Source of the DNA: a plasmid
Sequence record: NZ_CP114643.1
Reading direction: 5' to 3' (one strand)
Length of the DNA stretch: 29,481 bases
Shown here: in pieces, positions 75 to 29,429 of the stretch
Numbering within the stretch: the stretch's first letter is position 1
Layout: each line of letters begins with the position of its first letter
Notes under the pieces: generated by a model
The model's database searches: none
What the model was told of the DNA's origin: nothing
The model's input: only the letters and a program-made list of their open reading frames with translations
Translations under genes and position numbers: made by a program

Positions 75-92
75 ATATCTATTTCTAAGGAG
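75..92 (+). promoter_or_regulatory. Conserved upstream element (ATATCTATTTCTAAGGAG; imperfect copy of the TAGATATCTA palindrome + AGGAG RBS) 6 nt before the PF57-like start
   Basis: Seen directly. Near-identical 18-21 bp element also at 2937..2957 (+) and 29409..29429 (-), each ending in AAGGAG just upstream of an ATG. Confidence 0.5.
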
Positions 93-2936: not shown

Positions 2937-2957
2937 TAGATATCTATTTCTAAGGAG
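2937..2957 (+). promoter_or_regulatory. Conserved element TAGATATCTATTTCTAAGGAG (10-bp perfect palindrome TAGATATCTA + RBS) upstream of the ERF-like gene
   Basis: Seen directly. Same element at 29409..29429 (-) and a degenerate copy at 75..92. Preceded by GTTTTTGTTATACTATTTTTGTTA, which matches the window end plus window start. Confidence 0.5.
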
Positions 2958-2964
2958 TTTTAAT

Positions 2965-3957
2965 ATGCAAAACACAAATAATATTACAAAAACAAATATG
3001 CAAGATGTAATGAGTAACCAAGGTTTAATAATGCATGAGAAACAATCAAAGCTAGAATTTCTAAAGTCACTGCACACTTTACAAATGCAATTAAGTGGTG
3101 TAGGTAAGAACCTTACTGGCTTTGGATATAAATATCAAGATTTTAATGAAATAATAAGAGAAATCAAGCAAGTTATAAAAACCAATAATCTAGATATTGG
3201 ATTTACTCAATGCCCAACTATAAAAAATTTTGATGGTAACATAGTTAATGTTATTGAAACAACATTTTATAGTACCAAGACTGGGTATAGAGAATCATTT
3301 GATACACCAATATATACAGAAGAATTGAAATCTATAGAATGGAAAAGTAAAAATACCTTTCCTCAACTTGTAGGTTCATGCATAACCTACTTTAAACGCT
3401 ATGCACTTGTAGCTTACCTATCAATTGAGAGTGAGGTAGATACTGACGCAAATACCTTAGGGACTAGACAAGATGCAACAGAGGAACAGTCTAAGGGTGT
3501 AGAAATCCCACCTGTAGATGTGAAATCTAACAATTTGACTAATGATAAGGTAGAAAAAGACGTTAAATCTAATAATCCAGTATCTGTAAATAAAGCTAAT
3601 TCAATTAAGTTTAGTTGCTATAGGAGTCTTCTCATAGCAGCACGTAGAATGCATAAGTATTTGGTTAATAAACCATTTGATAGTATAGCGCAGATAAATG
3701 CATATTTAAATGCTATAAAGCTGGGAGATGATTCATCCTTATTAGAGTATTTTAATATGCATAAAGCCTTAAGGAATGTTAACTATTGGATAGAACTCAT
3801 AAGAGAATATATATTTAAGAATAATCATCTTATGAGAAGGTTAGATCAATTTGAGGCCTTTGTAGCCCTTATGCAACCTAAATACGAGGATAGTCCACTG
3901 AAATTATTTGGATTCTTGTCAGTAGAGAACGAGTTGAGATATTTATTTAATGCATAG
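2965..3957 (+). CDS. ERF-family single-strand annealing (recombination) protein
   Basis: Motif LSGVGKNLTGFGYKYQDFNEIIREIKQVI matches the ERF signature (FGKYKY..EDIL..V) of P22 Erf-like SSAPs. 330 aa. N-terminus MQNTNNITKTN is shared with neighbouring genes. Confidence 0.55.
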   Translation: MQNTNNITKTNMQDVMSNQGLIMHEKQSKLEFLKSLHTLQMQLSGVGKNLTGFGYKYQDFNEIIREIKQVIKTNNLDIGFTQCPTIKNFDGNIVNVIETTFYSTKTGYRESFDTPIYTEELKSIEWKSKNTFPQLVGSCITYFKRYALVAYLSIESEVDTDANTLGTRQDATEEQSKGVEIPPVDVKSNNLTNDKVEKDVKSNNPVSVNKANSIKFSCYRSLLIAARRMHKYLVNKPFDSIAQINAYLNAIKLGDDSSLLEYFNMHKALRNVNYWIELIREYIFKNNHLMRRLDQFEAFVALMQPKYEDSPLKLFGFLSVENELRYLFNA

Positions 3958-6718: not shown

Positions 6719-7574
6719 TAATTAATCTACTCGTAGTATCAAATACAAGCAATTGTGAGGGTTCAATAGATATATCTGTATTTTCGCTAAATTCATTAAT
6801 GTCAGAAATACTTGTACTTGAATCATCTTTAGTTGCTGCAAATATTTTCATGCTTTTAATAGCTTTAATTTCATTAACAGGAGCAAAGAAGTCTTGATGC
6901 TGGAAGTGATTACCCATCCCTAAGTAATTATGTGTAATAATTCTGTTGTAAATATCCCTTATTTGTTTATCGATATTAAGGTAAGTATGATTTTTAATGT
7001 CTAGAGTATATTTAACTTTAAGATAAACATATTTTTTCTTCCCAAGAGTGACTTTGTATGATATATGTTGATTGATTTCATTTGTGCCATCAATTTCAAT
7101 GTCACCCTCAAGAGTAGTACCACTGGGAATAGATGTATAGAGAGTACTGTAAAGGCTGGCTTTAAATGTAGAGTCACTAATTTGATCTTTACCAGGATTC
7201 AGAACTGATTCATTTAAGATTAGGTATATTTTAACTTTACCAGCTTCACTTGTAAGATTAGCAAACTCAACTTTATCTAAGTTAAGTAATGCTTTTATCA
7301 TACCAGGGTGTGTGATACTATTTGAAGTTATGTGTTTTTGGATACTACCGAAGAATTCACCACCAGGTTGCATCCTCTCAAAGAATAAATTAAGTTCATT
7401 AATGATTTGCTCTTCAACAATTGAGAGTGATGTTGCAATCATATTATAAATGGAGGATGGGTCATCATTTATTACAACATTGTACATCTGCATAAGGTAC
7501 TCTCTTTTAATATCTATGATACTTTTGATATTTTGTTTTAATACACCAAAATTAGGATCAAATATAATACTCAT
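6702..7574 (-). CDS. Baseplate J-like protein (P2 gpJ / Mu gp47 position)
   Basis: 290 aa. 4-nt overlap with the upstream W-like gene. Order spike-W-J-I-fibre. Confidence 0.35.
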   Translation of the reverse strand: MSIIFDPNFGVLKQNIKSIIDIKREYLMQMYNVVINDDPSSIYNMIATSLSIVEEQIINELNLFFERMQPGGEFFGSIQKHITSNSITHPGMIKALLNLDKVEFANLTSEAGKVKIYLILNESVLNPGKDQISDSTFKASLYSTLYTSIPSGTTLEGDIEIDGTNEINQHISYKVTLGKKKYVYLKVKYTLDIKNHTYLNIDKQIRDIYNRIITHNYLGMGNHFQHQDFFAPVNEIKAIKSMKIFAATKDDSSTSISDINEFSENTDISIEPSQLLVFDTTSRLIIDIES

Positions 7575-7903
7575 GTGTTAATAACCGTTTCAAGTAAATC
7601 ACCAGGGAAGTAAAATGTAATATGCAAAGTTTTAAGTTTAAGTACAGTTTTAATTCCTGTAATATTAATTTGCAGTTGGTTAGCTATATTATAAAAATAT
7701 GATTTTATTTCATTTAGATTACCCAGTTTACATACTTTTAAAATATACAAATAATCAAGTCCCCATCCTAAAGCATAGGGTATACTGCCCTTTAGAGTGT
7801 TAATGAATATGAATAATCGTTGTTTTTGTTCCAAAATACCATCTATGATATGTAAGTCATAATTAAATATTAAATCGAAGTTGTCATTAACTTTAATGTC
7901 CAA
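7571..7903 (-). CDS. Baseplate wedge protein (gpW / gp25-like)
   Basis: 110 aa, the characteristic size for gp25/W-family proteins, placed between the spike and the J-like gene. Confidence 0.35.
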   Translation of the reverse strand: MDIKVNDNFDLIFNYDLHIIDGILEQKQRLFIFINTLKGSIPYALGWGLDYLYILKVCKLGNLNEIKSYFYNIANQLQINITGIKTVLKLKTLHITFYFPGDLLETVINT

Positions 7904-7977: not shown

Positions 7978-8727
7978 CTAATTAAGTAACTCATGAATTT
8001 TACGTCTAATATCATAAATCCCAAATCTACTAGATTCATCTATAATAGCTTGTCCTGTAACTCTTAAGTTAGAGATAGCGTTTGTTATATCAATTAAGAT
8101 GCTTTTTAGAGTTTGAGAATCATTTCTAATATCAATTTTATTAGATTTGATTAGGATCTTATTTTTGGCAGTTAAATCAAGGTTATAATTTGCATTTATA
8201 TCAATGTCATCATTAGATGTGATTAAAACGTCATCTTTGGTTGTTATACTAAGATCAGTACAATTAATATTGATATTTTGATTAGCATTTATGTTGGTAT
8301 TATCTGAGTGTATATCGATTTGGTTATCAGATGTAAGTTCAAGTTTATTATTGGTTTTTAAGGATATATGCTCACAAGCCATTTCTAGATATTTAGGATC
8401 TATAATACTTAAAATATAGAAATGACTTTTATCAAAATTAATGTCATCATCAGGATTAAAAAGATTGATACTAGATTGCAGTAGTAATACCATCTCTCCT
8501 TGTTTTGGATTTATATTGATATTTGATATATTATGTGTATCAATTTCAAGGTTATCAAATTCTTCCAGGATTACAACACCTTTTTGAGACGCATGATCAA
8601 AAGTTTTAATTTTGCCTATTTTAGTAATAAAAATATTACTAAATATCCATAGTTTTATTTCCTCTTGTGTTAGTGCTGTCCCATATAAATTTTGATTCAT
8701 TCTGTAAAGATCATAGTTTAGCGACAT
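7978..8727 (-). CDS. Baseplate central spike protein (beta-helix repeats)
   Basis: C-terminal half is made of short Asn/Ile/Asp-rich repeats (NINANQNININCTDLSITTKDDVLITSNDDIDINANYNLDLTAKNKILIKSNKIDI). These resemble gp5/gpV-type spike beta-helices. Confidence 0.4.
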   Translation of the reverse strand: MSLNYDLYRMNQNLYGTALTQEEIKLWIFSNIFITKIGKIKTFDHASQKGVVILEEFDNLEIDTHNISNININPKQGEMVLLLQSSINLFNPDDDINFDKSHFYILSIIDPKYLEMACEHISLKTNNKLELTSDNQIDIHSDNTNINANQNININCTDLSITTKDDVLITSNDDIDINANYNLDLTAKNKILIKSNKIDIRNDSQTLKSILIDITNAISNLRVTGQAIIDESSRFGIYDIRRKIHELLN

Positions 8728-11852: not shown

Positions 11853-12288
11853 AAATGTGTCCTGTATTTTTTATATTATTAACTACATATTCATAATTAA
11901 ACTGTGCATCATTGATGTAATCAAATACAACAAAATCACCTACATTGTTTTGATATTCTTTAAGGAAAATAAAAGATGGATTTTTAAATTCAGCATCTAA
12001 ATGAAAGGTATTGAACTGCACACAGTATATAATTGCAATGAGATAATCTTTATAATAAGTTGCAAACTCTCTATTATTATCAAGTATAAGATAAAACTCA
12101 TCTATGAATCCAGGCTTTATCATTAAATTAGTAATTTCTCTTAAGTATTTGATGTCGTAAAGTTTTTGGGTGCCATCCTGTTGAGAAAATCCAAGTACTA
12201 AGTCCCACTCGTACATTGGAAGTACTTTTAATGGATACTGGTGTGTTTTATCTTTACTTAAGATGTGCATTGTATATCGTGTAATCAT
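11845..12288 (-). CDS. Tail assembly chaperone (gpG/E-like)
   Basis: Start reassigned to the ATG at 12288 (MITRYTMHIL...) with RBS AAAGGAG, just after the tube stop at 12299. The ORF-track start at 12447 would overlap the tube gene by 149 nt. Confidence 0.35.
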   Translation of the reverse strand: MITRYTMHILSKDKTHQYPLKVLPMYEWDLVLGFSQQDGTQKLYDIKYLREITNLMIKPGFIDEFYLILDNNREFATYYKDYLIAIIYCVQFNTFHLDAEFKNPSFIFLKEYQNNVGDFVVFDYINDAQFNYEYVVNNIKNTGHICA

Positions 12289-12298
12289 TGTGACTCCT

Positions 12299-12727
12299 TT
12301 AATGTATTTTATGTATTTTTTCGCAATTAACTGCTCTAATCTCAAATGTAACCTTTTCAGCCTCAGCAGAGTAACTTCTTGAGGGTTCCTCAGTAAATAC
12401 TGCAGTATTACTAATAATTTTTGTTGCAATATGGTCATTAAATACAAGGTCTAGTATCTTATCATGTTTACTTATATTCATGTTATAAAACTGCTCATCA
12501 GCAAGTTGTGTTAGCAGGATATAATCTTGACTACCAAGTGTCACTTCAATGTTAAAGATATAAGTAATGGTTTTAGGATCTCTAAAGCTAACTACAGGCA
12601 TACCCCGATCCTCACTACTAATTACTGCCCTTGAGGAAGGTTCAGTTGTAATTTCTAATTTACCACTGTTAATTTGCTTACCACCTATTGAGAAGTAAAT
12701 ATCTTTTATGTTAAATAAGTTATTCAA
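12299..12727 (-). CDS. Tail tube protein
   Basis: 142 aa, directly downstream of the sheath-size gene and upstream of the chaperone pair and tape measure (Mu gpM / P2 FII position). Confidence 0.4.
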   Translation of the reverse strand: MNNLFNIKDIYFSIGGKQINSGKLEITTEPSSRAVISSEDRGMPVVSFRDPKTITYIFNIEVTLGSQDYILLTQLADEQFYNMNISKHDKILDLVFNDHIATKIISNTAVFTEEPSRSYSAEAEKVTFEIRAVNCEKIHKIH

Positions 12728-12730
12728 AGT

Positions 12731-13855
12731 TTATGACCTCCTATTATGAGTGTTTAAGTAATCACCAATGTCTTGTGAGGTGATATTAAGAGTCACACTA
12801 TTCATGCTGAAGTTGTAAATAATACCTACAGATAATGATAGATCTAAGTTGGTACTTGGGTTTATCTTCATGCTAAGATCTTTGTAGGAGACAATAATAC
12901 CTTGATCAATAAAGGTTTTAAGCGTGCACTCTAAAGCGGCAGTGTAAGCATTATCTCTCTTCCCATCAAGTTGCAGACTAGATAATTTACTGTTAGCTCT
13001 ATTATTGAAGTTCCATACTCTAATTAACTTGGATGTAAGTTCATATTTGATGTAATGGTATGTAAATATCTCATCAATTGGGGATCCATCAAGAGTTACT
13101 CCTTCTTTGAATGCAGGAATGCCATCAAGACCAGTTTCATTAAGGAGTGAGTAAAAGTTAATATTAGCACTTCTAAGTTTACTGATTGTGTCACTATCAG
13201 TAATAGGGTGTATCCCGTTAAACTTTACTCCATAAGGGTTCACAGCATGAAACATGCTAGCTTCATGTAAGTATTTAGATATGAATCTTAAGTTAAGATG
13301 TTCTTCTGCCTTAGAGTGGATAACAATAATCCTAGATTTAGTGTTAGTAGCATCTGTAAAGAGCGCTTTTATTTCAGACTCTTTGGTTGCAAATACAAAG
13401 AAATGCTTATCTTCTTTAAAATGTGTGTAGTCATCTTTGTAAAGAGTAATCCCATCACCACCATCACTTGAATAAGTATTAATAAGGGTAATAAAAGTAT
13501 TTCTGTTTTGTATTAGCTCTGTTTTAATTGCTTGTGCCGCTGTAGATTCCTTGTATATAAGTAGTTTAACTGATCTTAGGCCCGCATCTCCATAGGAGAA
13601 AAATGCACATAGTGCCCGCTTAAGGTATGCTTTCTCATTATTAAATTCTGTCTCATCATTACTCCCTTCTTTCTCTAGGGTATCAATTAGTTTTTCAAAG
13701 TTATTTATATTCAAGTGTAGTATCTTTACTTTGGGTGTTGATGATGCAAGCTTAATTTTTGCACATTTATATACAAGTAGTGGCTGGTAGTAATTTACAT
13801 TTTTGATGTCTAATGTTTCATGAATTAAATTGACATTAATTGTATCTTGTGGCAT
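12731..13855 (-). CDS. Contractile tail sheath protein
   Basis: 374-aa ORF followed by a tube-sized gene, as in the sheath-tube-chaperone-TMP order of myoviruses. Confidence 0.4.
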   Translation of the reverse strand: MPQDTINVNLIHETLDIKNVNYYQPLLVYKCAKIKLASSTPKVKILHLNINNFEKLIDTLEKEGSNDETEFNNEKAYLKRALCAFFSYGDAGLRSVKLLIYKESTAAQAIKTELIQNRNTFITLINTYSSDGGDGITLYKDDYTHFKEDKHFFVFATKESEIKALFTDATNTKSRIIVIHSKAEEHLNLRFISKYLHEASMFHAVNPYGVKFNGIHPITDSDTISKLRSANINFYSLLNETGLDGIPAFKEGVTLDGSPIDEIFTYHYIKYELTSKLIRVWNFNNRANSKLSSLQLDGKRDNAYTAALECTLKTFIDQGIIVSYKDLSMKINPSTNLDLSLSVGIIYNFSMNSVTLNITSQDIGDYLNTHNRRS

Positions 13856-19107: not shown

Positions 19108-20322
19108 TTAATATTCATAAAAAAATAATTTTAATCTTAAGGCATGAAGCTCTCTTTGACTTAAACAATTACTTGCTTCTAATTCCTTATATTTACGCAC
19201 TAATTCTATGAGTTTAGAGTCCCTATCGTACTTTTCCTCCTCACCAAGTATGTGTAGTGAATTAAACCTCATATCTAAGTGGTAATGCTTGTTTAATTTG
19301 CTATTAATAGTAACTTCTATCTTTTCTTGCACACTCTTTAAGAAGTCATAGTAATTAGACCTATCACCCTTACCCTCATTGCCTAGTCCCTTAACTTGTT
19401 CATTAAAGCTACGTGTTAGTGGCTCTTTTGTGTCAGCCCCAATCTTAGCTTTGACTAATGCTAAGGCTTCCTTAAGATAGCTAATATCATACTTTATGAC
19501 TTCCATTGATGCATCAGTTTCACAGCTATAAAAGATCCCACCATTATCCAACTTAGATTTAAGTCTTGCAAGCTCACCTACTAATTCATCATTTGCATTA
19601 ACTGACAATGTGACATTATTATCTTTTGTAGATGAAGCATTCTTAGTAAAGAACTCTTTAAAGAAGTTACCTCTGCTCTTATTTGTACCTTCTTTTGATA
19701 CTGCAGCAGTTGATAGGTCCTCTTTAATATGTGAGAGTGATTCATCTTTGTAAAACAAAAAGTTATGGGTATCTATTCTCTTCTCTATTTCTTGGTAGAT
19801 CTTCTCTAGTAAATACACATCAAGAAGGAAGCTTTCACTGTAACATGGAATATAAGAACCCAATATATAATCATAATTAGAGTATATGATTAATCTACTT
19901 TTGTGTATTGTTAATGTAGTAAAGCCTGAGGAACTTAAGTCTAAACTTTCACCTTTAAAGTAGTAGTTTATATGAGTAGACTCTGGTCCAAGGTCATGTA
20001 CCCTAGAATAATCTAAATACATAAATCCTATAGGAAGTTCACTATTAACTTCCAAGTGCAAATCACCTGTCTGGTCTGCAGTTTTAACTAAAATATACCC
20101 AACACCATTAAACCGACAGCTAATAATACACTGCATTAATGCTTCTTTAAGCTCGAGTTTAAGTTTATCTAATTCTTCGCACATAGATGTAACAGAAGAA
20201 GACGTACTCTGCAAACTAATTCCATTCTTTAGCACGTCTTCTGCTACATTCTCTATATAATTCCTAAAAAATATTGAATACTTATATAAGTCCCTTGCGT
20301 TTACTTTAAACCTTAAACTCAT
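19108..20322 (-). CDS. Portal protein candidate
   Basis: 404-aa ORF. First large structural gene after the large terminase (separated from it by the inserted Bdr-like gene). Called by synteny and size only. Confidence 0.35.
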   Translation of the reverse strand: MSLRFKVNARDLYKYSIFFRNYIENVAEDVLKNGISLQSTSSSVTSMCEELDKLKLELKEALMQCIISCRFNGVGYILVKTADQTGDLHLEVNSELPIGFMYLDYSRVHDLGPESTHINYYFKGESLDLSSSGFTTLTIHKSRLIIYSNYDYILGSYIPCYSESFLLDVYLLEKIYQEIEKRIDTHNFLFYKDESLSHIKEDLSTAAVSKEGTNKSRGNFFKEFFTKNASSTKDNNVTLSVNANDELVGELARLKSKLDNGGIFYSCETDASMEVIKYDISYLKEALALVKAKIGADTKEPLTRSFNEQVKGLGNEGKGDRSNYYDFLKSVQEKIEVTINSKLNKHYHLDMRFNSLHILGEEEKYDRDSKLIELVRKYKELEASNCLSQRELHALRLKLFFYEY

Positions 20323-20461
20323 TTAAATAACATCTAACCTTACACAATAAATATAATGCAACAATTAGTTTTTGATATAATTTAATTAACAAAAAAATTT
20401 ATTTTTTACAAAAAAAAATAACTATTGGATTTTCACTTTTATGCTTTTGCTTATTTTAAAT

Positions 20462-21211
20462 TTACTTATTTAATAATGAATACACTATTGAGATTAATGT
20501 TAAGAATATCCCTACATTAAGTGTGATAAGAGTTCCAAACATCCATCCATGTAATTTTAATGTACCTTTAATTTCTGAGGTTGATTTGTCTATCTTACTA
20601 TCAAGAGTATTTATCTTACTATCAAGCTCAGTCCTATTTATTTCCATATCTTTTCTAACAAGAGCAACTTCATTACTTACAGAGGCAATCTCAGATTTTA
20701 AGCTTGTCTCTACTTTGTCAATTTTATTATCAAGATCTCTAATATCAGATTTTAAGCTAGCTTCAACATTGTCAATTTTATTATCAAGATCTCTAATATC
20801 AGATTTTAATTCAGTTCTAACATTCTCGATTTTATTATTTAAGTTATTCTCAACGTTATCTATTTTATTATCAAGTTCTCTAATATCGGCTTTTAAGCTA
20901 GCCTCAACGTTATCTATTTTATTATCAAGTTCATTAAATTTATTATCAATTTTATTATTAAGTTCAGTATGGACTGCTTTAATCTCAGATTTTAAACTAA
21001 CTTCTACCTTTTCAATATCAGATTTTAAGCTAGCTTCAACTTTTGCAAGCTTAATGTCAAAGTTTTCTTTAAGATACTCAATATCTTTGTGAGTAAGCTC
21101 ATTTTTATAATACCTGTAAGATAAATCCTCAGCAATCTCCTGATTAATACCCGCTTTAATAAGCTCAGCTAATACCATTTGTCTTGTAATAATAGTTTGA
21201 GGCAAACCCAT
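20462..21211 (-). CDS. Bdr-like repeat protein: coiled-coil KID-repeat protein with C-terminal membrane anchor
   Basis: Central array of 11/18-residue repeats (LDNKIDNVEASLKSDIRD x several). C-terminal hydrophobic segment WMFGTLITLNVGIFLTLISIVYSLL. This architecture (KID-containing repeats plus C-terminal anchor) is that of Borrelia Bdr proteins. Confidence 0.5.
   Translation of the reverse strand: MGLPQTIITRQMVLAELIKAGINQEIAEDLSYRYYKNELTHKDIEYLKENFDIKLAKVEASLKSDIEKVEVSLKSEIKAVHTELNNKIDNKFNELDNKIDNVEASLKADIRELDNKIDNVENNLNNKIENVRTELKSDIRDLDNKIDNVEASLKSDIRDLDNKIDKVETSLKSEIASVSNEVALVRKDMEINRTELDSKINTLDSKIDKSTSEIKGTLKLHGWMFGTLITLNVGIFLTLISIVYSLLNK
20640..21060. repeat. Imperfect tandem DNA repeats (unit about 54 bp, with 33-bp sub-units) encoding the Bdr-like repeat region
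   Basis: Seen directly, e.g. TCTCTAATATCAGATTTTAAGCTAGCTTCAAC.TT.TC.ATTTTATTATCAAGATC recurs at 20739..20790, 20791..20840, 20870..20925 and 20990..21050 with substitutions. Confidence 0.5.
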
Positions 21212-23325: not shown

Positions 23326-24249
23326 ATGAATAAATATATATATTGTTTAATACTATGTAGCATGTTACTTTTCTACTGTTGCGGAGAGCGTAATCCTATG
23401 CCAAAAGGGAATAACCTAACAAATGATTCTAATACTACCTTAAGTGCTGATGAACAACAAAAAGTTGATACTCTAATTTATGTATTTAAAAAAATGATAG
23501 AAAATGATAACCAATTGAACATGGAACAAAAAGAAAAATACAAAATGTTTGAAATTTGGTTATTAAAAGATACTCAAAAACAAAAAGAATTGGCTGATCA
23601 TTTTCAATATGTATACTATCTTTTAGACCAAGAAACAAAGCCACAACAAGCAAGCAACATACCTACTAAACAAATTATAGTAAATACTATTGATTGCGTA
23701 GCGTCAAATCAATGTGATGGCAGAAATGATGTGTACTCTTATCATCGAGATGATTCGATGACTGATGGAGAAAAAATAAAAAGTTTTTTTAGCAATCTTT
23801 TACACAATATACTTGACACACTTAAAAAGTCTAACAATAACATAAATACATATGAAGAAGTGTTTAAATATCTTAGATCAGAATTCGTTTCTCCAAACAA
23901 TGCTATTATTACGGGTTTATCAACCGATGAGACACTTAACAAAATGAGATTCAATAATCAACAAATAAAAGCAATAAGATTCTTGCAAGATAGTATAGGT
24001 AAGAGTAAACAACATATAAATAATTCAACATATATATCTTTTATAGTCTTAAGCAATTCAACGGTTAAACCGGCACTAGATTATATATATAATGAACTTT
24101 TAAAGTGTAATGAAAATCAACAAAGTATTGATAATTTTAATGAGGATTTACACAACTATTTTTGGTCTCTAGCTCCAAATAAAATTAATGATGAGACAAT
24201 AAAGCAATTACCAAATAAAGTGACTATTAAATGTGGAAATGCTAATTAA
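23326..24249 (+). CDS. Lipoprotein, 307 aa, function unknown (candidate lysogenic-conversion surface protein)
   Basis: RBS AAAGGAG. N-terminus MNKYIYCLILCSMLLFYCCGE is a signal peptide with lipobox-like Cys. Divergent from the late operon. Confidence 0.45.
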   Translation: MNKYIYCLILCSMLLFYCCGERNPMPKGNNLTNDSNTTLSADEQQKVDTLIYVFKKMIENDNQLNMEQKEKYKMFEIWLLKDTQKQKELADHFQYVYYLLDQETKPQQASNIPTKQIIVNTIDCVASNQCDGRNDVYSYHRDDSMTDGEKIKSFFSNLLHNILDTLKKSNNNINTYEEVFKYLRSEFVSPNNAIITGLSTDETLNKMRFNNQQIKAIRFLQDSIGKSKQHINNSTYISFIVLSNSTVKPALDYIYNELLKCNENQQSIDNFNEDLHNYFWSLAPNKINDETIKQLPNKVTIKCGNAN

Positions 24250-24730: not shown

Positions 24731-25165
24731 ATGAAAATAATTAATTTTGTTTTAATTTTATCACTATTAATTAGTAGTTGTGGACAATATGAAAATGCGA
24801 ATAATGTTTCAAAAAGGAGATCTAAGAGAGACATAAAGCAACAAATAGACGAGGTTAAAAAAACACCTGAGGAAGCATTAAAAGAGAAGTTAAGTGAAGA
24901 AGAAAAGGTAAATCTAGAGTTTTTAAAAGAAGCTTTAGGTGATGAGAGTAAATTTGGTCAGTTTTTAATCTTTGATGAATCTAAGATAAAATCTGCTCTT
25001 GAACATATAAAAGAACAACTTAAAAGTTGTAATGGTGATGCAGAAGGTGGTAAAGAAACGTTTAAAACTGTTGTACAAGGATACTTTAGCAAAATGGATG
25101 AAAGTACATTAAATGGGTTTAAAGATGGAGCAACAAGCACTTGTCAAGCAGGAGCAGGGGGATAA
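24731..25165 (+). CDS. mlp: Mlp-family (multicopy lipoprotein) lipoprotein
   Basis: MKIINFVLILSLLISSCG signal/lipobox, then EKLSEEEKVNLEFLKEALGDESKFGQFLIFDESKIKSALEHIKEQLKSCNGD...TFKTVVQG...GF...TSTC. This matches conserved Mlp blocks recalled from B. burgdorferi cp32. 144 aa. Confidence 0.75.
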   Translation: MKIINFVLILSLLISSCGQYENANNVSKRRSKRDIKQQIDEVKKTPEEALKEKLSEEEKVNLEFLKEALGDESKFGQFLIFDESKIKSALEHIKEQLKSCNGDAEGGKETFKTVVQGYFSKMDESTLNGFKDGATSTCQAGAGG

Positions 25166-25485
25166 ATAAAGAGATAAATAAAGCCAAAGGCTGAAAGTTA
25201 ATAAATAGGAAATTAAGAAAGAGAAATTAAGAAAGATGTAAAAAGAGAAAGCAGTATGAATTCCCAAAAAATAGAAAGAGCTAGAATAAATAGGAAGAGT
25301 AAAAGGATTAAGTAAATGGGATTAAGAAAGAGGGAAGTAAACAATTGGTTAACAATGGGTAAGAAGATAAGAATTGAGAAGAGAGACGTTACATTGCAAA
25401 GGTAAGAGATAAGGAAATGAAAAAAAGGTATGAAATAAAAGAATAGGAGATAAGGAAGTATATAAGTAAGTGTTAATATACTATA
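25166..25485 (+). repeat. About 320-bp purine-only (A/G about 85-90%) low-complexity tract on the + strand
   Basis: Seen directly. Degenerate AAGA/AAGAG/GGAA-type units, with only tiny ORFs on the + strand. Confidence 0.5.
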
Positions 25486-25658
25486 CATTTATTCCTAAAT
25501 TATCAAAACATACTCTTAAGTAGTATAAAACTAATCTTTAACACACATACTATATGCAATGACCCCCCTCTAAATTTGACTCTATAAACAAATATTTGCT
25601 AATATTATAGTAACTATTTATACATATTTTTATAACCTTTACTTAAAATCTAAATTAC

Positions 25659-26429
25659 ATGAAAAGGCAAGATTATCTTAAGGAAAAAATTAATCAACTC
25701 ACTAAGCAAAATGAACTCCTACTAAAAGAATCTCAACACTACAGGCAAGAATTAGAACAACTCAAAAGTAAATTAGACAAAAAAACTACTAAACCTCCCA
25801 AACCTAAACCTGTAAGGTTTTATCTTAACGACAAAACAACTAGACTTGTAAAACGTTGTATAGAAAAACTTAAAAGTATTGACCCAATATCTGGTTGGTT
25901 TGTATATATCCTCTCAATTACTGGTTGCAGGGGAGTAGAACTGCAAAACGTAAAACTTACCGATATTTCTAAAGAAATTAGCTCTGATGGTGAGGTTTTA
26001 TACTCACTTCGTGTTAATGTTGCAAAAAAGCGTAGTAATATCTGTATAAGAGAAGTAGTTGTTAGTGAACCTGAATTTGACTCTATTATGAGAATACACA
26101 AACACTATTTTGATGCTAAGGGTAAAGACAGTCGGCGTACATATCTCTTCCAAAAAAGCAAAATTAGATTCAAAGACAACAAGATTAATATAAATAAAAT
26201 AGCGGTTCAATTTAAATCATTACTTAAATCTTATGGATTTAAAGAGCGTAAATCACTACACCTATGCAGAAACATATTTATTGCCACCCTTAAATCTCGT
26301 GGGTACAACTCATTTGAAATAAAAGAGCTTATGAAATACTCCTCCACCTCAGAGATTGATAACGTTTATGGTCTCTCCAGTGCAAGTAAAATCCAGGCTT
26401 ACAAAGATATTAAATCCAGCTTGAAATAA
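25659..26429 (+). CDS. Small tyrosine recombinase (integrase/resolvase family) with N-terminal coiled coil
   Basis: Box I Arg in ITGCRGVELQNVKLTDI. Box II HLCRNIFIATLKSRGYNSFEIKELMKYSSTSEIDNVYG gives the H-x-x-R motif plus catalytic Tyr about 35 aa downstream. 256 aa, with no large N-terminal arm-binding domain. Confidence 0.55.
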   Translation: MKRQDYLKEKINQLTKQNELLLKESQHYRQELEQLKSKLDKKTTKPPKPKPVRFYLNDKTTRLVKRCIEKLKSIDPISGWFVYILSITGCRGVELQNVKLTDISKEISSDGEVLYSLRVNVAKKRSNICIREVVVSEPEFDSIMRIHKHYFDAKGKDSRRTYLFQKSKIRFKDNKININKIAVQFKSLLKSYGFKERKSLHLCRNIFIATLKSRGYNSFEIKELMKYSSTSEIDNVYGLSSASKIQAYKDIKSSLK

Positions 26430-26502
26430 TTTCCATTCTTGCTACATTTATAGTACAATTAAAACAACTTTAAAACAAAAAATCTCTATTTCTTCAATAT
26501 AA

Positions 26503-26530
26503 GGACACCAAGAGGTGGTGTTCTTATATA
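26503..26530 (+). terminator. Weak rho-independent terminator candidate after the recombinase gene
   Basis: GGACACCA-AGAGG-TGGTGTTC hairpin (8-bp stem with one G-U pair) followed by TTATATATAA. Confidence 0.25.
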
Positions 26531-26999
26531 TAATGAGCTAAAAACTATCAAAATACTTTTCAATAATTTATATTTTTGCTATAATATACTAACTATTATA
26601 ATGTTATTTAGTATCAACATTATTATTTTAATATTATCTTAAAATTTCTTTTTTTGTTACTCATAAGGGCATGCAAATGCTCTTTTGATTACTAAATATG
26701 CTTAAGCACATATCAAAACAACTTGATGCAATGATTATTTTTTGCTAAAATAATTTATCCTTAACCTATACAACCACATACCTCATACAAGAATAAATAT
26801 CCAATCTGGTTTTGGGTATCTATTCTTTTTCAAGTAAGTTATTTATTAAACTAATTAATATAATTATTAAACATTTCAAGGTGAACATAATGATTCTTTT
26901 TAATATTAATGTAAACTTAAAATTATCATTGAGGTATGTTGAGTAAAAAGATTTATAATTCTTTCTCTATAGCAATATTTCCTTCTCTATGTAATAGTT

Positions 27000-27416
27000 T
27001 CAATACTTTCTAAATATCCTCTTTGATGTAACCTGATAAGGAGTCCCTTTCTCTTTAAGCTTAAGTGAATCATATAGCACCTCAGAGTTATTAGTTGCTA
27101 TAAAGTGAGATCCAAAAGCTTTATCAAGCTTAACTTCACTCACTTCAAATTCATTTGATTTACTTACGTAATTCTTATACTCCCATCTAACATCACTCTT
27201 AATACCATAGTGCGCAAGTATCCTGCATGGGTTTAAAATAAAGCAATTACTCTTTATATATCCTAAATTAACAAATTTATTATAATTATAATTAATATCG
27301 GAAATAGTAAATTCTAAAGTCTTAAATTTACTTATATAGTAATGCAGGCATAATAAGTAACATCCAAATTTTTGTATTTCTTTCTTTAACTTTGGCTCAT
27401 TTTGTTTTATATTCAT
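27000..27416 (-). CDS. Hypothetical Cys/His-containing protein (possible Zn-binding or Cys-His hydrolase)
   Basis: 138 aa. C-x3-C-x-H (GCYLLCLHYY), then C-x6-C-x3-H (CFILNPCRILAH) and GSHF. Last gene of the exonuclease operon. Confidence 0.3.
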   Translation of the reverse strand: MNIKQNEPKLKKEIQKFGCYLLCLHYYISKFKTLEFTISDINYNYNKFVNLGYIKSNCFILNPCRILAHYGIKSDVRWEYKNYVSKSNEFEVSEVKLDKAFGSHFIATNNSEVLYDSLKLKEKGTPYQVTSKRIFRKY

Positions 27417-27460
27417 ATTTAACCCTTAACCTCCTATTTTAAATATTAATAAACATAAAT

Positions 27461-27826
27461 CTAAATAAATGGCGAGGTTATAAACTCATTATCTCCATCA
27501 ATAGCGTTAGCAAAACATTTAGCATTATCAAATAAAGACAACATCTCAGTTATAAATGAATGCATTTTAAAGTACGTGTCCACACAGATACTATTTTTAT
27601 TAATCTTGATAATTCCACATGATATGAAATCACGATGATGTTTTTTATAAACCTTTAAAAATATGTCTAGGTGCTTCATTGCATCAGTAGCAGTAAATGT
27701 TGGAAGCTCCTCTTCATTATTCCAATAAAGTCTATAATTTTTACTATATAAGACTTTTTCAAATTCTGATTTAAAACACATCATTTCATCGATAATCTGT
27801 GTCTTTGAAATAACTTTACTACTCAA
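27461..27826 (-). CDS. Hypothetical protein
   Basis: 121-aa ORF co-oriented and translationally coupled (8-nt overlap) with the upstream small membrane protein gene. Confidence 0.3.
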   Translation of the reverse strand: MSSKVISKTQIIDEMMCFKSEFEKVLYSKNYRLYWNNEEELPTFTATDAMKHLDIFLKVYKKHHRDFISCGIIKINKNSICVDTYFKMHSFITEMLSLFDNAKCFANAIDGDNEFITSPFI

Positions 27827-29401: not shown

Positions 29402-29408
29402 TATTAAA

Positions 29409-29429
29409 CTCCTTAGAAATAGATATCTA
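29409..29429 (-). promoter_or_regulatory. Conserved element TAGATATCTATTTCTAAGGAG (palindrome TAGATATCTA + RBS) upstream of the exonuclease gene
   Basis: Reverse complement of 29409..29429 is identical to 2937..2957. The following coding sequence (ITKTN...) also parallels the ERF-like gene. Confidence 0.5.

Follow-up and report, generated by a model that had tools for sequence, protein, structure and literature searches.

What does a site-specific recombinase do on a prophage that exists as a circular plasmid, and where is the DNA site on which it would act? Both questions are raised by a locus in plasmid record NZ_CP114643.1, of which a stretch of 29,481 nucleotides was analyzed (the whole stretch is referred to as the window). 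An initial annotation, made from the letters of this DNA, had pointed to a small tyrosine recombinase next to a 570-bp AT-rich region. Multimer resolution, integration into other replicons, and inversion of an adjacent segment had been proposed as roles, with the AT-rich region as candidate res/att site.

A Tyrosine Recombinase with a Predicted Zipper Helix

We found the recombinase gene (int) as first described, i.e., an ORF at 25659..26429 on the + strand, which runs from ATG to TAA and encodes 256 residues. The protein is 100% identical to a RefSeq "tyrosine-type recombinase/integrase" on B. miyamotoi plasmids. Its match to Pfam PF00589 (residues 65–237), the profile suggested at the outset, scores 27.1 bits, which is exactly the gathering cut-off (E = 4e-6); the match is borderline but real, and most members of the family carry a precomputed PF00589 match. 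The PHROG_1 integrase profile also matches (E = 4e-8). Searching the PDB with the single sequence returned nothing relevant, and searching it with a profile of the recombinase returned a weak match to XerA alone (E = 0.17). When the AF2 model (pLDDT of 81.8, pTM of 0.71) was compared with PDB and BFVD entries using Foldseek, all the significant matches were tyrosine recombinases or integrases, the best being XerH, XerA, lambda Int, IntI, Cre, and Flp.

In the predicted structure, a single long helix (residues 3–40, nucleotides 25665–25778) is followed by a basic Lys/Pro linker (residues 41–57) and a catalytic domain (residues 58–255), which is also supported by profiles. The coiled-coil N-terminal sequence quoted in the initial annotation was correct: the helix has a clean heptad register and forms a five-heptad leucine zipper, with L7, L14, L21, Y28, and L35 in d positions and I11, N18, S25, L32, and L39 in a positions. 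This zipper helix probably serves dimerization. The Pfam profiles and the AF2 model agree with the earlier statement that there is no arm-type DNA-binding N-terminal domain, and the helical core-binding (CB) domain is absent as well, since one helix and a disordered linker precede the catalytic domain.

The active-site residues noticed earlier also held up. In an alignment of 26 diverse family members, the Box I Arg (R91, within TGCRGVEL), K123/K124, the Box II H-x-x-R (H201 and R204), Y227, and Y237 are invariant, and the R, K, H-x-x-R, and Tyr nucleophile are kept in B. tachyglossi relatives too. As assigned from profile alignments, and not from residue-level structural superposition, the fifth pentad position (the second His) corresponds to Y227. 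It is L or F in the B. tachyglossi relatives and therefore a variable hydrophobic or aromatic residue in this family, not His. This replacement is an observation that weighs against a maintenance role.

Could the protein have lost its catalytic activity and be kept as a DNA-binding regulator? The Pfam score at threshold only, the replaced second His, and the missing CB domain would fit such a scenario. We nevertheless consider it highly improbable because the other catalytic residues do not vary between Lyme and relapsing-fever members or in B. tachyglossi, because Cre and Flp likewise have no His at this position but a Trp, and because dN/dS is 0.12–0.25, with an omega of 0.10–0.17 for the catalytic domain. 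Judging from these ratios, the whole catalytic domain is under purifying selection. Taken together, the profiles, fold, invariant residues, and dN/dS point to a bona fide tyrosine recombinase that is apparently competent for catalysis.

BppC Orthologs on cp32-Type Plasmids

Full-length homology (E ≤ 1e-73) extends to more than 90 Borrelia/Borreliella proteins, one of them named BppC, and a profile search of 1.84 billion protein representatives restricts the family to Borreliaceae. Homologs occur on ~375 Borrelia/Borreliella plasmids, among them all B31 cp32s, lp56, and the minimal cp9. The orthologs on B31 cp32, lp56, and cp9 (annotated as BppC or "site-specific integrase") are 52–64% identical to the recombinase in the window. 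The idea that canonical cp32 prophages are without an integrase was therefore wrong.

The window itself is a cp32-type plasmid-prophage. A 1.7-kb query spanning int and the adjacent gap (25400–27100 of the window) is 99.8% identical to B. miyamotoi MN18-0001 cp30-2. The synteny is that of cp32-type plasmids: cargo lipoprotein gene(s) are followed by int, which converges with a DUF261 gene, beyond which lies DUF244/YqaJ in the same orientation as DUF261. The order from int to DUF244/YqaJ is common to B31 cp32-3 and lp56, and the synteny including the cargo lipoprotein is also found in relapsing-fever species. The conserved neighbor, of BppB type, is at 27000..27416 on the − strand (Pfam DUF261, E = 1.5e-56). 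By homology and synteny, int is the B. miyamotoi ortholog of BppC, a Borreliaceae-specific core gene of cp32-type plasmid-prophages. It is not new, since it is already annotated and has already been noted for B. miyamotoi cp30 plasmids.

The gene is retained on every circular cp32 derivative, down to the 8–9-kb cp9, which keeps essentially just replication/partition genes plus int, and the reduced circles cp19 and cp24-1 likewise keep it. Copies on linear plasmids are often decayed, one out of four being intact on lp97 and only a fragment being left on hermsii lp59. Retention on cp9, cp19, and cp24-1, together with decay on linear plasmids, is an observation that speaks for a maintenance role. 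Very few genes are retained to this extent; we found no published assay of BppC.

Probable Terminators and a Decayed Methylase Gene Downstream of int

The region 26430..26999 has no ORF longer than 59 codons between stops and a GC content of 22.5%, compared to 29.3% for the window. It is therefore AT-rich and without longer ORFs, as first reported. Part of it nevertheless derives from a gene: the rightmost ~150 bp (26854..27003, − strand) are what is left of a Dam-like DNA adenine methylase gene. In tblastn searches with the intact 271-residue Dam of Izh-5 cp30-5, two of the remnants gave 15/18 and 13/16 identities (E = 9e-7 and 2e-5). Residues 1–9 are encoded at 27003..26977, residues 10–25 at 26980..26933 in a shifted frame, and residues 254–271 at 26907..26854. 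Residues ~26–253 are deleted in the window, and ~680 bp have been lost in North American plasmids. In B. parkeri, B. puertoricensis, B. coriaceae, and Asian/European B. miyamotoi, the same position is taken by an intact dam gene. A Dam-like methylase kept by prophages of Old-World and soft-tick relapsing-fever spirochetes has thus been lost from North American B. miyamotoi cp30-type plasmids, with possible consequences for phage or restriction biology that depends on methylation.

Repeat and promoter/terminator scans revealed that the rest of the gap contains hairpins and promoter-like boxes. The inverted repeat IR-A (26497..26529, + strand; ATATAAGGACACCA-agagg-TGGTGTTCTTATAT), which starts 68 nt past the int stop, is a probable int terminator. 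It recurs 3' of int in other units, with compensatory changes in the stem (GAGCACC/GGTGCTC) and loops of 3–8 nt. Further along the + strand are a promoter-like box P1 (26557..26585; TTTTCA-17-TGcTATAAT), the best match in the region with 10/12 positions, and a hairpin with a T-run (26661–26688; TCATAAGGGCAT-gcaa-ATGCTCTTTTGA), which is conserved in European plasmid L006. A second promoter-like box, P2 (26723..26751, + strand; TTGATG-17-TGcTAAAAT), was found by the promoter scan and in repeats D15 and D16, and is conserved on lp97 at 8330–8371 (92.9%). Next comes IR-B (26789..26827; AAGAATAAATATCCAA-tctggtt-TTGGGTATCTATTCTT), which lies where the dam/DUF261 operon has its 3' end and probably terminates transcription from both directions. 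Its consensus, from eight loci in three species, is a 15-pair hairpin in which one C:G pair has changed to U:A in a compensatory manner, with loops of 4–8 nt and A-/T-rich flanks. IR-B occurs once in many, but not all, relapsing-fever int-to-dam spacers and is missing where dam is missing. Neither cp19, nor the second spacer of the cp30-4xcp19 cointegrate, nor B. coriaceae has it, and all Lyme cp32, cp9, and lp56 loci lack it as well.

With arms and spacers of 14-5-14 and 16-7-16, respectively, IR-A and IR-B have a lox/dif-like geometry, and the arm sequence of IR-B is conserved across three species. Either could in principle be the core of the res/att site that the initial annotation placed in this gap. 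The comparative data essentially refute this reading and leave it a negligible likelihood. A loop, or "spacer," ranging between 3 and 8 nt cannot be reconciled with cleavage in a fixed register, the flanks are terminator-like, and IR-B is not present in the Lyme cp32, cp9, and lp56 loci or in int-bearing cp19 and B. coriaceae. Moreover, the distance between int and DUF261 is 5 bp in Lyme cp32 versus 122–838 bp in relapsing-fever species, part of the gap is a dam pseudogene, and nothing downstream of int is conserved family-wide. For these reasons, and in view of the compensatory stem changes, we rejected both repeats as lox/dif-like cores; they probably behave as terminators. On these comparative grounds, the 570-bp gap is a composite of a probable int terminator, a variable spacer specific to B. 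miyamotoi, a probable dam-operon terminator, and a decayed Dam gene; it is lineage-specific and holds no conserved recombination site.

Orientation of Neighboring Segments

A small enzyme with no CB domain, as FimB and FimE are, might instead be a FimB- or Rci-like DNA invertase that flips a nearby segment such as the gap or the replication/partition cluster. The PF57/50/32/49 cluster is surrounded by a perfect 24/24 inverted repeat (29406–29429 and 2937–2960) and is inverted relative to B31 cp32; a partition cluster is also inverted between Izh-4 cp30-1 and cp30-2 (PMC6945570). However, the 24-bp repeat is a shared leader/RBS module with three copies (the third at 77–92, in direct orientation) and hence looks regulatory, and all 37 near-full-length matches (≥80% of 25400–27100) are single collinear pieces. 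Comparing closely related plasmids revealed no polymorphism in orientation, and the repeat was rejected as an inversion site. Inversion of an adjacent segment by this enzyme thus appears very improbable.

Boundaries of Natural Fusions and Integrated Copies

Since cp32-like units are found inside the linear plasmids lp56 and lp97 and as circular cointegrates, the protein could be a true integrase that inserts the prophage into linear or circular plasmids at an att site near int. The six natural fusion/integration boundaries are, however, spread over five different places. The left unit of lp97 ends inside int, at about residue 204, and the cp32 in lp56 was opened within the DUF228 cluster, ~8 kb from int. 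As for the circular cointegrates, the crossover is in DUF228#3 for cp30-4xcp19, in late genes 8–10 kb from int for cp30-6xcp30-11, and within the ~940-bp int cassette for cp30-5xcp24-1, the one case that would suit an att site near int. A break in homology with lp97 at exactly 26497 resembled a site-specific junction but reflects local divergence, and the true boundary of the unit is inside int.

Such scattered boundaries are the pattern expected from homologous or illegitimate recombination. All three circular-cointegrate crossovers lie in long identical blocks, and homologous recombination is therefore sufficient for them; this applies to the three cointegrates, the lp97 truncation and the lp56 opening being uninformative in this respect. 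In addition, an arm-binding domain is lacking, the annotation of the closest record includes no Xis-like gene, and cointegrate fusions are rare (3 of 344 plasmids). The mapped junctions thus point to homologous recombination, and not to BppC, as the source of cp30/cp32 fusions. The proposed integration into other replicons is not supported, and an integrase function, largely refuted by these boundaries, is very improbable.

A Conserved Block Upstream of int, Homologous to the Lyme pac Region

We found by cross-plasmid alignment that the sole flanking non-coding DNA alignable across relapsing-fever cp30, Lyme cp32, and cp9 is a block upstream of int (25503..25658, + strand; 62–68% identity). 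This block includes the promoter, the 5'-UTR, and a conserved TGCAATGA box at 25555–25562, a second copy of which is part of P2. The promoter predicted by the scan (25576..25605, + strand) has a −35 TTGACT, an 18-nt spacer, and an extended −10 TGcTAATAT; when 15 loci of three plasmid classes were aligned, all shared TTGACT, and TGnTAAAAT was almost without exceptions. The gene would thus be transcribed from its own strongly conserved promoter of the sigma-70 type. RNAalifold found no conserved inverted repeat in the block, and neither repeated binding motifs nor a core inverted repeat were recognized upstream of int. Visual inspection of the Lyme 5'-UTR suggested a 9-7-9 palindrome, which was dropped, as it is not kept in cp9 or relapsing-fever copies. 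Non-coding blocks shared by cp9 and the window were weak AT-rich matches only, and an Rfam scan of 25000–27500 gave zero matches.

The homologous DNA in Lyme plasmids, the int–erp intergenic region, contains the pac/cut site of phiBB-1. This phage packages linear cp32 by a headful mechanism, with a pac/cut site at ~26 kb, "immediately upstream of erp" (PMC11008901). In B31 cp32-3, int is at 25500–26276 and erpG starts from 26708, which leaves a 431-bp intergenic region. With pac/cut placed in this region, the BppC gene is a neighbor of the pac site mapped recently, an arrangement also known from cre/lox and pac in P1.

This proximity brings up a cyclization system similar to P1 Cre/loxP, where a site in the terminal redundancy would recircularize headful-packaged DNA and multimer resolution would be a second use. 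Apart from the vicinity of pac, it is favored by the conservation of the upstream block, which no other non-coding DNA matches across cp30, cp32, and cp9, and by the cointegrate crossover that falls inside the int cassette. However, no lox-like inverted repeat is recognizable in the block, cp9 retains int though its packaging genes are lost, and genes for an ERF annealase and a YqaJ-like exonuclease are present in the window. The latter two represent a P22-type route that could circularize terminally redundant DNA without the recombinase. We therefore view cyclization as the primary function as possible but doubtful.

A Proposed Role in Keeping the Replicon Monomeric

The most likely role, which we infer from the above comparisons, is that BppC maintains the circular prophage-plasmid as a monomer, in the manner of Cre and Xer. 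We assign a probability of roughly 0.6 to this reading, in which the downstream gap with its terminators, spacer, and dam stubs is not the site. The recombinase would resolve plasmid multimers or replication concatemers, the resulting monomers would let the ParA-type partition system segregate the plasmid, and the enzyme may also help to recircularize headful-packaged DNA. Phage-plasmids commonly carry recombinases for dimer resolution (PMC7969092).

Of the roles proposed initially, multimer resolution stays the most plausible, although no recombination site was found in the upstream block or family-wide downstream of int. Two further observations need to be weighed. Each of the three circular cointegrates retains two int cassettes as direct repeats, which are 97–100% identical in cp30-5xcp24-1; an efficient resolvase with a site in the cassette should have resolved such cointegrates. 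Furthermore, cp26 is a stable circular Borrelia plasmid too but is missing from the replicons with a recombinase homolog, so a dedicated resolvase is not obligatory for circular plasmids in Borrelia. We found no statement on a host Xer/dif system in the literature on Borrelia.

Comparison with Known Systems

The closest relative is B. burgdorferi BppC (e.g., BB_M37 and the cp32-3 gene at 25500–26276), an ortholog with 52–64% identity over 80–100% of the length. The two share the 256–261-residue size class, invariant active-site residues, a conserved promoter, and a convergent DUF261 neighbor. They differ in that relapsing-fever copies have another N-terminal helix sequence, with one extra heptad in the window copy, and in that no Shine–Dalgarno sequence precedes the ATG of the B. 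miyamotoi gene, while AAGGAG is present in Lyme copies. Mlp, rather than a divergent erp gene, is the upstream cargo, and a Dam gene, decayed here, is inserted between int and DUF261.

FimB and FimE are similarly close to being catalytic domains only, with ~200 residues. They invert a promoter segment beside their own genes, while no invertible segment is seen beside int, and they have no N-terminal coiled coil. ResD/rfsF of F and TnpI/IRS of Tn4430 are tyrosine resolvases with a site upstream of the gene. They resemble the present system in the proposed monomerization role and in the conserved upstream block overlapping the promoter, but this block contains no recognizable repeated binding motifs or core inverted repeat, and the likeness is at superfamily level only.

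Single-recombinase Xer systems (XerH/difH, XerA, and XerS/difSL) provide the best structural matches (XerH 5jk0, E = 2.7e-5; XerA 5hxy). In these systems, one enzyme works alone and its gene usually adjoins its site. Simple Xer-like tyrosine recombinases have a CB + CAT architecture (Smyshlyaev 2021, PMC8138268), whereas BppC has no CB domain. The NCBIfam XerA model scores 22.8 bits against a cut-off of 220, the gene is borne by a plasmid-prophage rather than a chromosome, and no dif-like core was detected in the upstream block, the downstream inverted repeats probably being terminators.

The biology is most reminiscent of Cre/loxP of P1, a temperate phage that exists as a circular plasmid, uses headful pac packaging, and has cre/lox near pac. 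Cre, too, lacks an arm-binding domain and has an aromatic residue in place of the second pentad His (Trp, compared to Tyr in the recombinase). The structural likeness is generic (Foldseek E ~2e-3, 15% identity), no lox-like site was found, and Cre has a full helical CB domain where BppC has one zipper helix. We can therefore propose, tentatively and as a less likely scenario, that BppC proteins form a structurally distinct class of tyrosine recombinase in which a zipper helix and a Lys/Pro linker replace the CB domain, and which would act on a non-palindromic site in the pac-proximal block both to recircularize and to monomerize the prophage. If this were true, BppC enzymes would be the missing Cre/lox equivalent of Borrelia plasmid-prophages.

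int encodes a very divergent tyrosine recombinase

The reading frame at 25659..26429 (+), which we call int, encodes exactly the 256-aa protein that the initial annotation had described as an arm-less tyrosine recombinase, and it is a genuine one. The Pfam model PF00589 (Phage_integrase) matched aa 65-237 with 27.1 bits, exactly its gathering threshold (E = 4e-6), and PHROG_1 "integrase" matched at 4e-8. NCBIfam gave Xer-like matches alone, far sub-threshold (22.8 vs 220), and a PDB search returned nothing relevant with the single sequence and a weak XerA match, nothing else, with the family profile. The protein is therefore highly divergent within the superfamily. An AlphaFold2 model, computed from an alignment of 26 family members covering the relapsing-fever and Lyme clades, is confident (pLDDT 81.8, pTM 0.71). 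In the PDB, all of its significant Foldseek matches are tyrosine recombinases, namely XerH (5jk0, E = 2.7e-5), an S. aureus integrase, XerA, lambda Int, IntI, Cre, and Flp. Among viral models, significant matches are nearly all annotated integrases or unnamed proteins. The catalytic Arg, His, and Tyr are conserved, with R91 (TGCRGVEL), K123/K124 in a beta-hairpin turn, H201-x-x-R204, Y227, and Y237 invariant in the 26 members. The position of the second His in the RKHRH pentad is taken here by Y227 and in the two most distant relatives by L or F; it therefore accepts hydrophobic or aromatic side chains, much as Cre and Flp have Trp there. Against six relapsing-fever orthologues, dN/dS is 0.12-0.25 (0.10-0.17 for the catalytic domain alone).

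In the model, aa 3-40 form one long helix in regular heptad register (d = L7, L14, L21, Y28, L35; a = I11, N18, S25, L32, L39), with weak Pfam matches to bZIP, HALZ, and TSC22 zippers. This copy carries one extra heptad, a 7-residue insertion that most relatives lack. The catalytic domain (CAT) follows after a Lys/Pro-rich linker (aa 41-57), and neither an arm-binding (AB) nor a core-binding (CB) domain is present. Since tyrosine recombinases have been classed as simple (CB + CAT) or complex (AB + CB + CAT) (Smyshlyaev et al. 2021, PMC8138268), this architecture is atypical, and it apparently has no earlier description.

By tblastn, 375 plasmids carry homologues, and every one of them comes from Borrelia, Borreliella, or a Candidatus Borreliaceae species. 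When the family profile was run against 1.84 billion representative proteins, there were only 28 matches, every traceable one from Borreliaceae and the most distant from "Ca. Borrelia tachyglossi." The initial annotation had started from canonical cp32s not being known to need an integrase, a premise contradicted by the tblastn matches listed, among which B31 cp32-3, NC_000950 (cp32), lp56, and cp9 carry homologues. RefSeq labels these "site-specific integrase" or "tyrosine-type recombinase," the B. burgdorferi orthologue is named bppC (e.g., BB_M37), and "site-specific integrase" had already been described as characteristic of B. miyamotoi cp30-1 and cp30-2 (Kuleshov et al. 2020, PMC6945570). 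Rather than novel, int is a known core gene of cp32s, already annotated and named. The gene is unmentioned in the phiBB-1 genomics paper (PMC11008901), and our literature search for a functional test of the protein found no such paper. What remains of interest is the zipper-plus-CAT architecture, together with the proposed function and putative site of BppC.

int lies on a complete or near-complete plasmid-prophage

The 29,481-bp window represents a cp32-type circular plasmid-prophage of Borrelia miyamotoi, in full or nearly so. Its 25400-27100 stretch is 99.8% identical to MN18-0001 cp30-2 (29,483 bp, circular) and 100% identical to several further North American B. miyamotoi plasmids. The replication/partition cluster PF57/62-PF50-PF32-PF49 (99-2724, +) and the ERF annealase gene (2965-3957) are followed by lysis and late genes on the minus strand, terminase, DUF603, two Mlp family lipoprotein genes, and int. 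Beyond int lie a convergent DUF261 gene (27000..27416, -), two small ORFs, and a YqaJ-like/DUF244 exonuclease gene. For a 307-aa lipoprotein-like ORF (23326-24249, +; signal/lipobox MNKYIYCLILCSMLLFYCCGE), Pfam gave no match; in RefSeq it is labelled "hypothetical" on cp30-2, and its lp97 paralogue "Mlp family lipoprotein."

A leader/RBS module, ATCTATTTCTAAGGAG followed by 8-9 nt and ATG, is present in identical copies at 77-92 (+), 2942-2957 (+), and 29409-29424 (-), preceding the PF57/62, ERF, and exonuclease genes, respectively; within it, the palindrome TAGATATCTA occurs in two copies. Two module copies make a perfect 24-bp inverted repeat (29406-29429/2937-2960) bracketing the replication/partition cluster, which is inverted relative to B31 cp32 and lies in opposite orientations in Izh-4 cp30-1 and cp30-2 (PMC6945570). 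The module is probably a shared operator/translation-initiation element and possibly also the substrate of this inversion.

The gap holds a methylase remnant and terminator-like hairpins

The 570-bp gap between int and DUF261 (26430..26999; 22.5% GC vs 29.3% for the window) has no ORF longer than 59 codons. Comparative data explain the gap; its identification, like that of the int protein, is secure, and its proposal as a res/att candidate was wrong. A "DNA adenine methylase" gene (dam) of 246-273 aa sits between int and DUF261 in B. parkeri, B. puertoricensis, B. coriaceae, and Asian/European B. miyamotoi; it overlaps DUF261, so the two are apparently co-operonic. With the intact Izh-5 protein, tblastn recovered remnants of dam aa 1-25 (27003..26933, -; frameshifted) and 254-271 (26907..26854, -); about aa 26-253 are gone in this plasmid and its North American paralogues. 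We set the internally deleted gene (26854-27003, -) against two comparison plasmids (L005, 1866-2681; L056, 2977-3795); other lp97 units carry about 570 bp extra at the deletion point. Thus, dam is internally deleted in North American B. miyamotoi cp30-type plasmids and intact in Asian/European B. miyamotoi and soft-tick relapsing-fever species, a loss that may affect 6mA methylation as well as restriction or phage biology. The spacer proper, from the int stop to the dam stop, spans 424 bp here (26430..26853), as against 122 bp (B. coriaceae), 247 bp (B. parkeri), 294 bp (B. puertoricensis), and 434 and 838 bp (two Asian B. miyamotoi plasmids); its middle (about 26530-26790) is B. miyamotoi-specific. 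Lyme cp32s have no dam and an int-DUF261 distance of 5 bp.

Two inverted repeats are present in the gap. IR-A (26497-26529), 68 nt past the int stop, has counterparts 3' of int in other units, where the stems differ by compensatory changes and the loops measure 3-8 nt. IR-B (26789-26827) is one of a family of hairpins, AATAAATACCYAA-loop-TTRGGTATTTATT, conserved across three species; the family shows a single compensatory C:G to U:A change, 4-8-nt loops, and A-/T-rich flanks. Initially considered as lox/dif cores, both were rejected because variable loop length misfits a fixed cleavage register; it does fit terminators between convergent genes. IR-B was not found in any Lyme cp32, cp9, or lp56 locus, in int-bearing cp19, or in B. 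coriaceae, and therefore tracks dam rather than int.

Two segments (26557-26690 and 26723-26832, +) have promoter-like boxes that share TTTTTGCTAWAATA, and each box is followed after about 75-100 nt by a hairpin and T-run (26661-26688 and IR-B). They could represent two small plus-strand transcripts, the second of which would lie antisense to the dam/DUF261 operon at its 3' end. By eye, the first contains a 13-codon hydrophobic ORF, MLFSINIIILILS. An Rfam scan gave no match for the hairpins or these segments. The 8-mer TGCAATGA lies upstream of the int -35 element (25555-25562; GCATGCAATGA in Lyme cp32 and cp9) and again at 26726-26733, overlapping the -35 of the second box, and may serve as the operator of a shared regulator.

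Upstream of int, about 150-230 bp are the sole flanking non-coding DNA conserved across cp30, cp32, and cp9. This block has an invariant promoter (TTGACT-17/18-TGnTAAAAT), and we found no conserved inverted repeat in it. Relapsing-fever int genes have no recognisable Shine-Dalgarno before ATG (…TTAAAATCTAAATTACATG; window 25630-25661), whereas Lyme cp32 copies have AAGGAG, which suggests that the relapsing-fever group translates int very weakly or under a different control. A tract between the Mlp stop and the int promoter (~25200-25470, +) is strongly purine-rich (GC skew +0.55 and AT skew +0.39 in 25001-25500), and a purine bias is seen in other B. miyamotoi plasmids too; a 91-aa minus-strand ORF there (25213-25488) is probably spurious.

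Natural fusions point to homologous recombination

The initial annotation had suggested that int might integrate the element into other replicons or invert an adjacent segment. We found no invertible segment, since every near-full-length match of 25400-27100 is collinear, and integration is unsupported by the scattered fusion boundaries. Linear lp97 carries tandem decayed cp30-like units, with int intact in one of four copies; the leftmost starts inside int, at about aa 204. In B31 lp56, the integrated cp32 was opened in the DUF228 cluster, about 8 kb from int. Circular fusion plasmids have also been reported (3/344; Hoornstra et al. 2024), and we mapped all three crossovers against free-standing parents. 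They fall inside the ~940-bp int cassette (about -190 to the stop codon) in cp30-5xcp24-1, in the third DUF228 gene, about 6.8 kb from int, in cp30-4xcp19, and in the late-gene block, 8-10 kb from int, in cp30-6xcp30-11. All three lie in long stretches of partner identity, a signature of homologous recombination rather than of a dedicated att site, and the element itself encodes a homologous recombination module (ERF/YqaJ). The single crossover in the int cassette is compatible with chance.

The tandem DUF228 paralogue cluster is a recurrent breakpoint (~6836 and ~37135 in B31 lp56; cp19 coordinates 7396-7790 for cp30-4xcp19). In NL-IR-1 cp24-1, a 24.7-kb circle, tandem partial duplication of [bdr-terminase-DUF603-Mlp-int-dam] has produced two intact recombinase genes, of 256 and 249 aa (12026-12796 and 20196-20945).

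A possible role in plasmid monomerisation

The small cp9 (8.3-9.4 kb) keeps little beyond replication/partition genes and int, the reduced circles cp19 and cp24-1 retain int, and copies on linear plasmids are frequently decayed. Together with purifying selection, this pattern argues for a role bound up with the circular replicon, rather than one in virion production or integration. By analogy with known recombinases, we tentatively favor, at a probability of roughly 45%, resolution of plasmid multimers or concatemers to monomers. Multimer resolution, as first suggested for this gene, stays plausible, although cointegrates with two direct int cassettes persist, one pair being 97-100% identical, which speaks against an efficient enzyme resolving at a site within the cassette. 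Also against it, cp26 is not among the replicons with a homologue, and cp26 stays a circular plasmid without one.

Alternatively, int might mainly cyclise incoming phage DNA as Cre does. Headful packaging of cp32 by phiBB-1 begins at a pac/cut site "immediately upstream of erp," at about 26 kb (Faith et al. 2024, PMC11008901), which on B31 cp32-3 is the int-erp intergenic region, and a putative site in the conserved block upstream of int, the classical res-upstream-of-gene layout, would also lie close to the packaged ends. However, that block offers a conserved promoter and no conserved inverted repeat, and we consider cyclisation unlikely as the main role; every other reading is more improbable still. 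Recombinases for dimer resolution are common in phage-plasmids (PMC7969092). The role we propose for int would be that of Cre of P1, which monomerises multimers and concatemers.
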